Positions 36,317 to 41,213 of a DNA stretch of 57,382 nucleotides are shown here, in pieces (within the stretch, counting starts at the first letter, position 1; each line of letters starts with the position of its first letter). The position numbers and the translations under genes were made by a program. Location of the stretch: positions 1 to 57,382 of the IMG/VR virus record IMGVR_UViG_3300010384_000007; one strand, 5' to 3'. This DNA is from a virus (Duplodnaviria > Caudoviricetes). The notes under the pieces are model-generated. The model did no database searches and was not told the origin of the DNA. It was given only the letters and a program-made list of their open reading frames with translations.

Positions 36317-37075
36317 GTGCCGCCACTCTCCGCCACCCGATTCGTCGCCGACTGCCTTGGCCTCTTGCCGTTCCCGGCCTCCGAGGGCGGGCCGAAGATG
36401 AGTGAGGCCTCCGGCGAGCGGTGCTACGTCTGCGGCCTGCCGGACGATAAGCCGGGGTGGGACCGGCGAACGATGCTCGGGGATACGTGGACCAATGGCC
36501 ACAAGGTCAAGGCCCCCGAGTCCGTGATGATCTGCCAGGCGTGTGCGGCGACGCTGCGCGGGGAGTCGTGGGCGGTGTACGCCGAACGCAGGGCCGATCT
36601 CGGGCTCAAGGCGAAGCACCCGATCTCGTGGAAGAGCTACCCGCACGCGATCTGGACGGGCACGCACCTCATCCCACGCGGAGAGGCGTGGCGCGACCTG
36701 TTGCTCAACCCTCCCGAGCCACCCTTCCTCTTCGCGATCCCGACCAGCGCGCAGAAGCACATCCTCTTCCTCGCGGCGGTCGCGACCTCCCGTGACCGGT
36801 ACCCCGTGCAGGTCGAGGAGGACACGGTCTGGGTGGACCGCGAGGCGTTTGCGCAATGCCTGGCAGCTGCCGAGGTGCTGTTGCTCCTCGGGTTCAGCCG
36901 GGACCAGGTCGAGACAGGACGCTATCACCAGGAGTCCATTCGCCGGGCAGGGTTGCGTGCCTTCCGCGATGCCGAGGCGGCGTTCGCGCCGTGGCGGATT
37001 GCCCAGCCAGCATGGGCTCGCCTCGCGGTGATGGTCGGCCATCGTCCGGAAAAGCGGACAAAGGAGGACACATGA
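36317..37075 (+). CDS. csf1: Type IV CRISPR-associated Csf1 (Cas8-like)
   Basis: CYVC...ICQAC zinc finger, LLNPPEPPF and QKHILF motifs; first gene of the operon. Confidence 0.82.
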   Translation: MPPLSATRFVADCLGLLPFPASEGGPKMSEASGERCYVCGLPDDKPGWDRRTMLGDTWTNGHKVKAPESVMICQACAATLRGESWAVYAERRADLGLKAKHPISWKSYPHAIWTGTHLIPRGEAWRDLLLNPPEPPFLFAIPTSAQKHILFLAAVATSRDRYPVQVEEDTVWVDREAFAQCLAAAEVLLLLGFSRDQVETGRYHQESIRRAGLRAFRDAEAAFAPWRIAQPAWARLAVMVGHRPEKRTKEDT

Positions 37076-37614
37076 TCGATACCGATATTGGCATATTCGG
37101 CTTCGAAACCGACGACCAGGACGAGGCGATCGCCGCACTGCTGATCTATGCGGTCTATCGCAGCCGCGATATCCGCAAGTTCAAGGTCACGCCCGATATG
37201 TGGGGGTTGATCTGCCGGGAGGCGAAGAGTGCTGCCAAGCGGTCACGAACCCTCGGGGAATGGGTTGAAGATTTCAAGAAGCCGCCTATTCATTGTTCGA
37301 CGATCTCTCCGAAGTGGATAGCAGTCGGAATAGCTGGAGAGATCGTCCTGACGCCGATACAAGGCGGCGGATTCATACAACTTGCCGATCGGGGCGAGCG
37401 ACAAGAGTTGCTCCCCGCAATCCTCCGCCGGACCGACCACAAAAAGGTCATCCGCAAGTTGTACCGGGAAACGGAAATGATGGTCGAGCTTGCTCGGGGG
37501 CGAACGATTCGCGAGAAGCCGATAGAGGCGCGGTTCGGCCGGGAGATCGAAGCGGACGACCTGCCCGATGATGTGCTGGACCTGGAGGAGGTAGGACGAT
37601 GGATGCGCGCCTGA
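37072..37614 (+). CDS. Type IV-B small subunit (Cas11-like)
   Basis: AAGGAGG RBS; helical 180-aa protein between csf1 and csf2, the usual cas11 slot; call mainly by synteny. Confidence 0.62.
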   Translation: MIDTDIGIFGFETDDQDEAIAALLIYAVYRSRDIRKFKVTPDMWGLICREAKSAAKRSRTLGEWVEDFKKPPIHCSTISPKWIAVGIAGEIVLTPIQGGGFIQLADRGERQELLPAILRRTDHKKVIRKLYRETEMMVELARGRTIREKPIEARFGREIEADDLPDDVLDLEEVGRWMRA

Positions 37615-38588
37615 TCGGGACGTTTACGGCAAAGTCGCCGATCTCGCATATCGGCGAGAGCATCGGCACAACCAGCTATCTCGTGCAGGAGCCGATCCTG
37701 CAGGACGATGGCGAGGTCGAGGAGGTCTTCGCCTACTCCGGCAACGCATGGCGGGGGCAACTGCGCGACCTCGCCGCAGCCTACCTGCTGGATAGCCTTG
37801 GCGGCGTCGCGGTCAAACCCGACACCTTCGCCCTCCTGTTCAGCGGCGGCAAGATCGGCGGGGAGCAGGGCGTCTATCTGGAGGAGGCGCGAGCCGCCCG
37901 GTCAACGCTGCCAATCCTCGCGGTCTGGGGCGGGGGCGTCCGTAACCAGATCCTCCCCGGCAAGATGCGGGTCGGCAACAGCTATCCGGTCTGCCAGGAG
38001 GCTGCGCCGGTCCTGCGCTACAGCTCGCCCGGCCGGGTCTCCTACCGCCAGCTCACGACCGAGAAATCGTTCAGCCGCAAGGACGACAGCAAGGATGACC
38101 GGCTCCTGGGCTACCTCGCCTTGCCAGAGCCGGAGGTCGGGCAGATCAGCCTCCTGGCGGACCCCGACGAGGGAAGGGCGAAGAAGGGCAAGAAGGCTGA
38201 ACGGAAAGATGGCGAGGTTGCCGACCAGATGCGGATGACCTCAGAGCTCCTGATCGCCGGGACGCGCCTGGAGACGTGGATCGATCTCCAGAACGTCACC
38301 GAGGTCGAGCTGGGGTGCGTCGTCTCCGCCCTGCACCGCTTCGCCCGCTCGCCACATATTGGGGGGCAGGCGAACAAAGGGCACGGGCTGGTGGACCTCC
38401 ATTACGACATCATCAACCTCGATACCGGGGAGGCGGTGCCATTCCTCGACGTTCGCGCCGGAGAGTGCCTGCTGGAGCCGGTGGCCGAGGGCGCGAAGGA
38501 GTCGTACGACCGCTACGTCAAGAGCCTCTACGACCAGATGCTCGCCGAGAACCGGACGGAGATTGTCGCGATGCTGGGGGCAGCGTGA
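37599..38588 (+). CDS. csf2: Type IV Csf2 (Cas7 backbone)
   Basis: AKSPISH, YSGNAWRGQLRD, LLFSGG, QILPGKM and IGGQANKGHG G-loop motifs. Confidence 0.92.
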   Translation: MDARLIGTFTAKSPISHIGESIGTTSYLVQEPILQDDGEVEEVFAYSGNAWRGQLRDLAAAYLLDSLGGVAVKPDTFALLFSGGKIGGEQGVYLEEARAARSTLPILAVWGGGVRNQILPGKMRVGNSYPVCQEAAPVLRYSSPGRVSYRQLTTEKSFSRKDDSKDDRLLGYLALPEPEVGQISLLADPDEGRAKKGKKAERKDGEVADQMRMTSELLIAGTRLETWIDLQNVTEVELGCVVSALHRFARSPHIGGQANKGHGLVDLHYDIINLDTGEAVPFLDVRAGECLLEPVAEGAKESYDRYVKSLYDQMLAENRTEIVAMLGAA

Positions 38589-39822: not shown

Positions 39823-40537
39823 GGCCCTGACCCGTGCAGATGCCCTGCACGCTCGCTCCCAGCGGTACCGCGATCTCGTGTCCCGGACCTACGCCGACCT
39901 CGCCGAGCAGATTGTGCAGGCCGCGCGCCCCTACGTCGCGCTCTCGGGCGGGAAAGATAGCCTCGTGGCGTGGGCGATCGCCTCGGAGATCAAGCCGGGC
40001 ATCCCCGCGATCTGGTGCGACGATGAGCTGGAGTACGACGGGACGCTGGAGCTGGTGCGCACCCTGGCCGGAGATCGGCTTGTGCATGTCTCCGGGTTCG
40101 CCGAGCATGCCCAATGGTTCCGCCCGTGGCGCTCGGAGCCCTTCTGGCGCGAGCCCGATCCGGCGATGATCTGGACCGGGGCACGAGTGGAGGAATGGGC
40201 GCCGGCGCAGGGCTACGATGCCGCGATCACCGGCGTGCGGGGGAGCGAGTCCCGGATGCGTCGTCTCTACGCGCAACCGCGCGGCATGGTGTACGAGCGG
40301 GTTGACAAGACGCTGGTCTACCAACCGATCATCCGCTGGTCGATCGATGACGTCTGGGCCTTCATTGCCGTCGAGGGCTTGCCCTACCATCCGGTGTACG
40401 ACATCCTCAGTGCCGCCCGCGTCCGGCGCGACAAGCAGCGGATCGGCCCGCTCCCCCTCTCCCCGCGCTGGATTCTTTCGCTCGTTGACGTCACGCTCCC
40501 CCGACGCCTAGAGGATCGCTATGGCCATCAATGGTGA
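39812..40537 (+). CDS. CysH-like PAPS-reductase-family protein (type IV-B associated)
   Basis: ALSGGKDS PP-loop, TGVRGSES..R, PIIRWSIDDVW and LPYHPVYD motifs. Confidence 0.92.
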   Translation: MPGEALTRADALHARSQRYRDLVSRTYADLAEQIVQAARPYVALSGGKDSLVAWAIASEIKPGIPAIWCDDELEYDGTLELVRTLAGDRLVHVSGFAEHAQWFRPWRSEPFWREPDPAMIWTGARVEEWAPAQGYDAAITGVRGSESRMRRLYAQPRGMVYERVDKTLVYQPIIRWSIDDVWAFIAVEGLPYHPVYDILSAARVRRDKQRIGPLPLSPRWILSLVDVTLPRRLEDRYGHQW

Positions 40538-41213
40538 GCCGTCGTGTGTGACGGTGACGGTGCGGCGGGACGGCGCCGATGCGGCCGGGCAGGTCTATCG
40601 CACGATCGCGGCCGCAGACCCCGCGCTTGCCACGGCGATCCATGACGCCAACGAGGTAAGTCCGTGGTCGGTGCAGCTCGATGGCGAGGTGACGCATGTC
40701 ACGATCTTCGATGCTGAGGTCGCAGCCGCCTTTGTCGCCGGGGCGAAGGCGCGTGGCGATGTCAAGACGATCCGGCCACCGGTCACGGCACGCTGGTGCA
40801 TCGATTGCGGCGACGGCGGCGCAGAAGCCCAATTGACCACACTGGCGCCGGTTCGCACGTCGGCCTCGATGCGCGGGGCGAGGGGGTTGACCGAGCGGCC
40901 GGACGCCCTCTTTCCCGACCCGGCACGCATCATCAACGATCTGGGGATCAAGTGGGCCAATCTCGGCTGGCCCGACCTCCCGCATGCCAAGGGCAACCAG
41001 ATCCACGGCGCATTGCTCAAGTACTCCATTGCTCATCTGCACGCCGGACGGCTCACGTTCCGCGGCTGGCACGGCGTCCTCCATCTCGACATGCGGCTGA
41101 TGTGTCCGGAGGACCGGGCGGTGATCTGGACGCTGCTGCGCTTTGGCGAGCTGCGCAATGTCGGGCGCAACGTCTCCTACGGGATGGGGGCGATCCGGGT
41201 GGAGCGCCGCTGA
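40521..41213 (+). CDS. cas6: Cas6-like endoribonuclease
   Basis: SPWSV, LTTLAP, FPDP.RI..DL..KW, RGWHG and terminal FGELRNVGRNVSYGMG G-rich loop. Confidence 0.75.
   Translation: MAINGEPSCVTVTVRRDGADAAGQVYRTIAAADPALATAIHDANEVSPWSVQLDGEVTHVTIFDAEVAAAFVAGAKARGDVKTIRPPVTARWCIDCGDGGAEAQLTTLAPVRTSASMRGARGLTERPDALFPDPARIINDLGIKWANLGWPDLPHAKGNQIHGALLKYSIAHLHAGRLTFRGWHGVLHLDMRLMCPEDRAVIWTLLRFGELRNVGRNVSYGMGAIRVERR

Follow-up and report, generated by a model that had tools for sequence, protein, structure and literature searches.

An array-less type IV-B Cas operon with a classical Cas6 in a tailed phage, and its relatives in a Csf2 clade where Cas6-family genes are the rule

Positions 36317-41770 of an IMG/VR virus record, IMGVR_UViG_3300010384_000007 (Duplodnaviria; Caudoviricetes), carry eight tightly overlapping genes on the plus strand, in the order csf1, cas11, csf2, csf3, a gene for a candidate GT-A-like glycosyltransferase (GT), a cysH-like gene, cas6 and a gene for an HTH_17 (helix-turn-helix) protein. 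The window analysed is the whole record, one strand of 57,382 bases (positions 1-57,382). The operon is almost certainly a phage-borne CRISPR-Cas effector module of subtype IV-B that is combined with a classical Cas6 and has no array, adaptation genes or helicase. It is nearly as good as certain that the operon is part of a large clade of phages and prophages, known mostly from metagenomes, whose members as a rule have a Cas6-family gene. Other IV-B loci with Cas6 have been described before, and the present one has in addition a unique insertion of a GT-like gene. The central obstacle to understanding IV-B function is the identity of the RNA cargo of the complex, and a clade with Cas6 or Cas6e as the rule gives a concrete handle on it.

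The first four genes encode the subunits of a type IV complex. csf1 (36317-37075) specifies a Cas8-like large subunit of 252 residues with a CxxC...CxxC pattern (PADLOC Csf1_0_IV, 2.1e-33), cas11 (37072-37614) the small subunit of 180 residues (PADLOC Cas11_2_IV, 9.8e-35), csf2 (37599-38588) the Cas7 backbone of 329 residues (PADLOC Csf2_0_IV, 1.2e-64; phrog_22746, 2.7e-49) and csf3 (38588-39250) the Cas5 protein of 220 residues (PADLOC Csf3_0_IV, 3.4e-30). These are followed by the GT-A-like (GT25-like) glycosyltransferase candidate (39247-39822, 191 residues; phrog_1721, 8.5e-5), a cysH-like PP-loop (pyrophosphatase loop) protein of the CasCysH type (39812-40537, 241 residues; PF01507 (PAPS_reduct), 6.7e-16; phrog_2302, 1.6e-22), cas6 (40521-41213, 230 residues; PF10040, 26.5 bits with the cut-off at 25; PADLOC Cas6, 2.4e-9) and a DNA-binding protein with a Zn-ribbon and an HTH_17 domain (41213-41770, 185 residues; PF12728, 6.1e-11), a homologue of which, 72% identical, occupies the same position in the closest relative, locus L022. 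Five independent libraries concur on these gene identities. The NCBIfam models for csf1 (TIGR03114, 1.3e-16, 61 bits), csf2 (TIGR03115, 5e-21, 75 bits) and csf3 (TIGR03116, 1.6e-12, 47.5 bits) match below their curated cut-offs of 140, 130 and 140, respectively, implying that the Csf proteins of the operon are distant from the reference type IV sequences. The cas11 product has no Pfam or NCBIfam match, and the solved IV-B Cas11 was missed when the PDB was searched with a profile built from 12 Cas11 homologues; cas11 adjoins csf2 in nearly all relatives.

Every junction within the operon is an overlap. csf1 and cas11 share ATGA, csf2 starts 16 nt before the end of cas11, csf2 and csf3 meet in TGATG, csf3 and the GT-like gene meet in ATGA, the GT-like and cysH-like genes overlap by 11 nt, the cysH-like gene and cas6 by 17 nt, and a further TGATG couples the HTH_17 gene translationally to cas6. 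A near-identical operon is present in metagenome contigs of four runs from three studies. The csf1 start codon reads GTG at 36317 in this genome and ATG in the near-identical contigs of all four runs, which supports the position of the start. As the operon is intact, tightly coupled and near-identical in four runs from three studies, it does not look like debris.

Subtype IV-B is defined by csf1-3 together with cas11 and a cysH-like gene, with neither helicase nor array (PMC7038947, PMC8175902). The operon has Csf1, Csf2 and Csf3, an operon-encoded Cas11 and an adjacent cysH-like gene, and it has no DinG/RecD helicase, adaptation genes or array. It departs from the subtype in one typical trait, the lack of Cas6, which is usual in IV-B and not absolute, 12 instances with Cas6 being recorded as rare exceptions (PMC7038947). 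CasCysH has been described as a PP-loop protein without the C-terminal catalytic cysteine (PMC8175902), and the protein encoded here resembles it in both respects, with an SGGKDS PP-loop motif and a sole Cys at about residue 69, none lying in the C-terminal 170 residues. No CRISPR array was detected in the whole record by two direct-repeat scans and Tandem Repeats Finder, and no known RNA family or tRNA by Rfam and ARAGORN. Cas1, Cas2, DinG (DEAD_2, Helicase_C_2) and RecD-type AAA_30 domains were each absent from the record in searches that were positive for control genomes. A Csf2 profile of the clade described below retrieved the IV-B Csf2 of 7jhy as its best PDB match (1.2e-21), with the IV-C Cas7c (11fs) nearly equal (7.9e-20) and the IV-A structures much lower (8rc2, 3.3e-13). 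The operon is thus assigned to its subtype by its gene content and by profile scores from the PDB and PADLOC, the Csf2 tree being limited to the relatives collected below.

The product of 40521-41213 is, judging from its modelled fold and its conserved residues, a genuine classical Cas6 with the functional motifs retained, and endoribonuclease activity is predicted for it. A search of 1.84 billion representative proteins yielded about 35 full-length homologues, other matches being set aside as long proteins aligned over a short repeated stretch only, and a word-index search gave P0002 (57% identity) as the sole non-self relative. In IMG/VR, a scan with a Cas6 alignment gave no match. An alignment with 28 relatives served as the basis of an AlphaFold2 model, which has a mean predicted local distance difference test score (pLDDT) of 94 and a predicted template modelling score (pTM) of 0.90, and of a sequence profile. 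The best Cas6 match of the model in a Foldseek comparison with the PDB is Thermus thermophilus TTHB231 (4c9d; template modelling (TM) score 0.72, E 1.9e-14), and further top matches are Streptococcus thermophilus Cas6 and the type IV Cas6 6njy (E 8.9e-12); 53 matches in the PDB have E <= 0.001, and those listed are nearly all Cas6, Cas6e (Cse3), Csf5 or Cas6b chains. The 28-sequence profile in turn matches Cas6A (5e-24) and Cas6B (1e-19) in the PDB. His41, which is kept in at least 90% of the 28 homologues, aligns with the first-helix His in the LAQKLHE stretch of T. thermophilus Cas6B, and is a candidate for the catalytic His of Cas6. In the C-terminal glycine-rich loop, Gly215, Gly221 and Gly223 are invariant across the 28 homologues. 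The model, the Foldseek matches, the glycine-rich loop and the PF10040 score above cut-off all point to the double ferredoxin-like fold of repeat-associated mysterious proteins (RAMPs).

The original prediction had named seven coupled genes, from csf1 to cas6, as an IV-B-like operon without cas1/cas2, dinG or array. It is borne out by the positions, strand and overlaps of all seven genes, by the repeat scans and the domain searches with their positive controls, by the IV-B gene content (cas11 and a cysH-like gene, no helicase, no array), by the PADLOC typing of Csf1, Cas11, Csf2, Csf3 and Cas6, and by the Cas6 fold of the seventh product; it did not include the eighth coupled gene, the HTH_17 gene.

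The homologues of Csf2 number more than 500, with identities of 52-81%, and many are encoded on contigs 45-64 kb long. In IMG/VR, a scan with the single Csf2 protein returned nothing, and an alignment-based Csf2 scan did find loci. The relatives taken for comparison (designated here by L numbers) comprise 19 IMG/VR loci, 50 metagenome loci and 11 loci from species-representative genomes, the last being metagenome-assembled genomes (MAGs) of Chloroflexota, Thermomicrobiota, Pseudomonadota, Bacillota and other phyla together with isolates of Rhodovulum and Frischella. Two plasmid loci were added, one from Rhodovastum (Csf2 48% identical) and one classical IV-B locus from Rhodococcus (Csf2 34% identical). 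The 65 loci with at least 250 matched Csf2 residues, less seven identical duplicates, gave a maximum-likelihood tree of 58 distinct rows, in which the main clade holds 52 distinct loci. The Csf2 proteins of the Rhodococcus plasmid IV-B systems are about 30-34% identical to that of this phage, and these loci sit on very long branches. By comparison, the identity is 69% for L022, 58% for L024 and L074, and 50% for L042.

The relatives were surveyed for Cas6 by tblastn and by hidden Markov models (HMMs) made from the Cas6 and Cas6e sequences of the clade itself. Cas6e (PF08798) directly follows csf2 in 28 of the 52 clade rows, an assignment that Pfam confirmed in all six loci tested (up to 5.4e-31), and eight rows have a PF10040-type Cas6. 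Thus a Cas6-family gene is present in 36 of the 52 loci, and in 36 of the 42 that can be judged, ten rows being cut short by contig ends. The remaining six rows (L014, L023, L026, L072, L078 and L084) seem to be complete operons without a Cas6-family gene, although an unrelated third type of Cas6 in them would have escaped the HMMs of the clade. The original prediction had treated the presence of Cas6 as an oddity, a view that is only partly right, since in this lineage Cas6 is none. This phage falls in a subclade of seven rows (support 84/91) with L022, L024, L074, L042, L003 and L076, and in each of the seven a classical Cas6 gene follows cysH at the operon's 3' end; in L051 the PF10040-type Cas6, a weak match (3.3e-15), sits directly after csf3. 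The classical-Cas6 subclade is nested among Cas6e-bearing lineages, suggesting that one Cas6 family has replaced the other. Such a replacement argues that RNA processing is needed.

Three loci without a Cas6-family gene have features of their own. L072, on a Rhodovastum atsumiense plasmid (NZ_OW485605.1, 5748-10981), is a member of the phage-type Csf2 clade with csf1, cas11, csf2, csf3 and cysH; the plasmid has ParA and ParB genes, and two unannotated downstream genes of about 195 codons have no Pfam match. In L014 (8861-13070), csf2 and csf3 are separated by about 4 kb of additional genes, two of them cysH-like. In L030, successive genes of the Csf operon are flanked by long inverted repeats (2297-2470, 4257-4436, 6684-6856, 7863-8091 and 8880-9031) composed of tandem units of 7 nt (CCGACAT/CCGTCTT types), and an array of the 8-nt unit CTCACCAN lies near them.

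CRISPR-like arrays were found in two of the 46 loci scanned for short-range repeats. In L003, a member of the classical-Cas6 subclade, four repeats of 29 nt alternate with spacers of 32 nt some 500 nt downstream of cas6, and the repeat folds better on the operon strand (-10.8 versus -7.8 kcal/mol). In the Cas6e locus L007, a perfect 6-bp hairpin with AACA after it occurs twice, the copies being separated by one 32-nt spacer (hairpin z -3.5). At up to five and up to four mismatches, respectively, the L003 and L007 repeats have no match in the other loci, a hairpin followed by GAAC occurs as a pair only in L007, and none of the five spacers of the two loci has a local protospacer. These repeats are ready for use as substrates in tests of the RNA that type IV-B complexes carry.

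The pair L003 and L076 offers a view of how an array can be lost. The two loci are 86-88% identical in nucleotide sequence across the operon. L076 has 231 bp in place of 1.74 kb of L003 that hold the array and the 3' two-thirds of tnpB. In L003 the TnpB protein (440 residues, 13795-15117, minus strand; HTH_OrfB_IS605, OrfB_IS605 and Cas12f1-like TNB domains) is intact and its gene stands tail-to-tail beside the array, whereas in L076 it is cut to the first 131 codons (14945-15340) and the array is gone, with cas6 left whole. Because tnpB is intact in the one and cut short in the other, the deletion occurred in L076. The remaining members L022, L024, L042 and L074 have cas6 without an array in the DNA available, at Csf2 identities of about 50-69%; over this DNA, having cas6 without an array in cis is thereby shown to be a lasting condition and no isolated mishap. 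The proviso attached to the original prediction, that relatives might carry an ordinary array lost here, is upheld in part, as the subclade of this phage can have an ordinary array (L003) and can lose it (L076). Array-bearing and array-less sister phages can thus be compared directly, and one close pair differs by the array deletion.

The GT-like gene sets this operon apart from all the others. The gene is missing from every relative fetched, and its product has no homologue in a search of 5.8 billion proteins and no Pfam match. In contigs from three of the four runs with near-identical DNA (X2, X3 and X4), position 39250 is joined to position 39818 with two letters between them, and in these GT-less contigs cysH would begin at the terminal ATGA of csf3, so that the insertion preserved translational coupling on both of its sides. 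The gene is thus a recent, precise and lineage-specific insertion that exists as a presence/absence polymorphism. The assignment of the 39247-39822 product as a GT25-like GT-A enzyme is a lead only. In the Atlas comparison the protein has a feature score of 0.97 to viral clusters in which only 12-17% of the members carry PF01755, the Atlas model (pTM 0.88) has a TM score of 0.76 to a GT25 cluster, and an EDD triplet is present; a single-sequence AlphaFold2 model reached a pLDDT of only 39.

Other enzymes are found at comparable places in the relatives. A B12-binding-type radical S-adenosylmethionine (SAM) gene takes the place of cysH after csf3 in L009 (7459-8778) and L010 (10184-11506), and one lies between csf2 and csf3 in L017 (1309-2529). 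HTH_17 genes follow cas6 here and in L022, and stand between cas6e and csf3 in L005, L006, L012 and L013. The variety of enzymes beside phage IV-B complexes, CysH-like proteins and the radical SAM proteins of L009, L010 and L017, fits a role of the complex as a delivery platform for modifying enzymes, an idea that goes with the long-shot reading given below. The present genome adds a compact, intact eight-gene operon in which a glycosyltransferase candidate has been freshly inserted beside the CysH-like gene, and would so provide one more modifying enzyme accompanying an IV-B complex.

Type IV-A systems, which consist of csf1-3, Csf5/Cas6, DinG and an array, silence their targets without a nuclease. 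The phage operon is similar to them in implying a Cas6-processed guide and a nuclease-free complex, and its Cas6 matches the type IV Cas6 6njy and Csf5 6h9h in Foldseek; it differs from IV-A in having cas11 and cysH and in having neither DinG nor an array. The Cas6 proteins of T. thermophilus (TTHB231 and TTHA0078; 4c9d and 4c8y) share with the phage Cas6 the same two-domain fold, the Gly-rich loop and the aligned first-helix His, whereas the phage protein is only 17% identical to them and is encoded inside an array-less IV-B operon. The plasmid IV-B system of Mycobacterium sp. JS623 (PDB 7JHY) has the same five gene families and likewise no array, adaptation genes or helicase. In contrast to it, the phage operon adds Cas6, the GT-like gene and the coupled HTH_17 gene, and its carrier is a tailed phage instead of a plasmid. 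The 12 Cas6-bearing IV-B loci of PMC7038947 are alike in IV-B content and Cas6. A Bathyarchaeia virus (Fuxivirus) is described as having IV-B with a two-repeat mini-array and a CysH-like gene (PMC10848311). It resembles the present case in being virus-encoded and in the CysH-like gene, and its mini-array resembles that of L007; it is an archaeal virus, its account mentions no Cas6 in the part available (PMC10848311), and no mini-array exists here. IV-B is treated as array-less and of uncharacterised function in the 2025 classification (PMC12669027) and a 2024 review (PMC11656645). Searches of the literature, the supplementary list of the 12 exceptions excepted, yielded no paper on a phage clade that regularly combines IV-B with Cas6e or Cas6. 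Among the phages of INPHARED, none matches the operon in nucleotide sequence or Cas6 in protein sequence, and the only Csf2 match (31.5%) is Skermania phage SPI1, whose genome holds homologues of csf2, csf3 and cysH and lacks Cas6.

The best reading of the operon, which we hold tentatively, is a nuclease-free complex that depends on crRNA (CRISPR RNA) and draws its repeat RNA in trans from an array of the host or of a co-resident element. The source of the RNA, the assembly of the complex and its effect are all inferred. Cas6 would recognise and cut a CRISPR-type repeat hairpin, and Csf3, the Csf2 backbone, a minor filament of Cas11 and Csf1 would assemble on the released guide. As the genome has no array, the repeat RNA would have to be supplied in trans, by a host CRISPR array or an array on a co-resident element. 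Having no nuclease, the complex would act through binding. It might sequester crRNAs from a host effector, or it might use the guides to bind complementary nucleic acid, in which case the CysH-like ATP pyrophosphatase, and here also the inserted glycosyltransferase, may act on the bound target. The original prediction named host crRNA and a phage RNA as possible substrates; CRISPR-repeat RNA is the more likely class, since relatives carry CRISPR repeats. Ideas of supply in trans and of a sponge have already been published for IV-B (PMC7038947, PMC8175902), and use of the host's I-E adaptation in trans has been reported for IV-A3 (PMC11656645). The most elaborate version, an RNA-guided nucleic-acid-modifying machine in which Cas6 cuts host pre-crRNA, the Csf complex is loaded with these guides, the CysH-like protein adenylylates the bound target and the glycosyltransferase adds a sugar, is a long shot; if true, host immune memory would be turned to the phage's advantage as a covalent mark or block.

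Several observations tell against supply in trans. IV-B co-occurs negatively with other CRISPR systems (PMC7038947), and the IV-B complex of Mycobacterium sp. JS623 bound heterogeneous RNA of 55-60 nt in which co-expressed I-E crRNAs were not enriched (PMC7937560). No candidate repeat RNA for this Cas6 was found. The L003 repeat is missing from this phage genome at up to three mismatches and from the four MAGs that hold L074, L076, L077 and L078, and L003 spacers 1 and 2 match only their own record in IMG/VR. The L007 pair, with two copies only, could be something other than a mini-array. Most relatives were scanned over only 8-10 kb on each side, and the statement that the majority are array-less is accordingly of lower confidence.

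There are three alternatives. The Csf filament may coat heterogeneous RNA without a specific guide, as a sponge or as a scaffold for CysH, with Cas6 a structural cap or a leftover. The heterogeneous RNA of the JS623 complex and its lack of crRNA enrichment (PMC7937560) would be expected on this account, as would the six seemingly complete clade operons without a Cas6-family gene and the many clade loci, a majority, that show no array. It is nevertheless unlikely, for a dispensable Cas6 is hard to reconcile with its being kept in 36 of 42 judgeable loci, with the swap of one Cas6 family for the other within the clade, with the retained His and glycine-rich loop, or with two loci that have arrays of canonical spacer length. 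Alternatively, the operon may have been orphaned recently, an L003-like array in cis having been lost by deletion so that the genes are functionless and await decay. L076 shows just such a deletion beside an intact cas6, and one of the seven loci of the subclade, L003, still has its array. Yet all eight reading frames are intact and overlapping, contigs from three studies keep the operon near-identical, and a frame-preserving insertion of a GT-like gene is unexpected in a dead operon; moreover, cas6 without an array in L022, L024, L042 and L074 (Csf2 about 50-69%) indicates a state that has persisted over long divergence. Recent orphaning is for these reasons quite improbable.

The other alternative is that Cas6 acts on a non-CRISPR RNA of the phage itself, either a leader hairpin at 36278-36307 or a transcript of 36200-36269, so that phage or host genes would come under the control of a Csf complex loaded with phage RNA, or the operon under that of its own Cas6. 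Directly upstream of csf1 lies a pair of 26-nt direct repeats (36200-36225 and 36244-36269; 88% alike, 18-nt gap), which is the only short-range repeat near the operon and unique in the genome (two matches, and none in 100 shuffles). For the 81-nt repeat region, the folding z values are -2.4 (plus strand) and -2.0 (minus strand). The hairpin of the predicted 5' leader (36278-36307, plus strand), an interrupted 12-bp stem with CGTAAC/GTTACG palindromes that ends at the GAGG ribosome-binding site, has a minimum free energy (MFE) of -17.6 kcal/mol (z -2.5; 4 of 200 shuffles fold equally well). These properties would suit an RNA substrate, but the second repeat coincides with a sigma-70-like promoter candidate that reads into csf1 (36245-36274, plus strand; -35 CGGACA, 18-nt spacer, TG-extended -10 TAGAAT), which is a consensus match only, with 9 of 12 consensus positions and the TG present. 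Each repeat also holds GGAC...GTCC half-sites, which look like operators in this position between divergent genes; the 18-nt gap contrasts with the 32-nt spacers of L003 and L007, and nothing in the region is similar to the repeats of the relatives. In L022 the 26-nt motif is absent and unrelated GATATC-type motifs stand upstream of csf1, as would be expected of phage-specific operators. Elsewhere in the genome, a CCCGC-loop-GCGGG hairpin pattern has three matches, no excess over chance, and a census of hairpin families found none with three or more copies except one 6-bp stem with three copies in DNA covered by open reading frames (ORFs). The repeat pair at 36200-36269 therefore probably consists of operator or promoter elements, and a role for it with Cas6, like a phage-RNA substrate in general, is rather improbable.

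At the other end of the operon, a GC-rich hairpin (41780-41815, plus strand) lies 3' of the last gene and is present in both the MFE and the centroid folds. It has no T-run and was not called by a terminator scan; it is a possible terminator. Converging on the operon end is a gene on the minus strand (41961-43469) for a 502-residue protein of several HTH modules (HTH_23, HTH_7 and Mor-like). Upstream, the endolysin gene (33804-35411) is separated from the operon by a small ORF without family match (35438-35809).

The genome as a whole is estimated by CheckV to be 98% complete and has a G+C content of about 60-70% along the whole record. It carries genes for a large terminase (phrog_38, 1.4e-112), the endolysin and a DNA methyltransferase, and is on that account regarded as a tailed phage. 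Searches with the terminase and the endolysin gave only distant and taxonomically scattered phage matches, so no host is inferred. A 77-nt direct repeat is common to both ends of the record (1-77 and 57306-57382), and its copies are 96% identical, with three mismatches. The imperfection of this repeat suggests the assembly of a mixed population across a circular or permuted junction. Just upstream of an ORF of 195 codons (15156-15743), for which no Pfam or PADLOC match was obtained, there is a 170-nt G-rich non-coding stretch (14966-15135) with a 5-nt periodicity in which GG opens most units; with its blocks of about 11 units, the stretch may be akin to the multi-site RNA targets of ring-shaped RNA-binding proteins.

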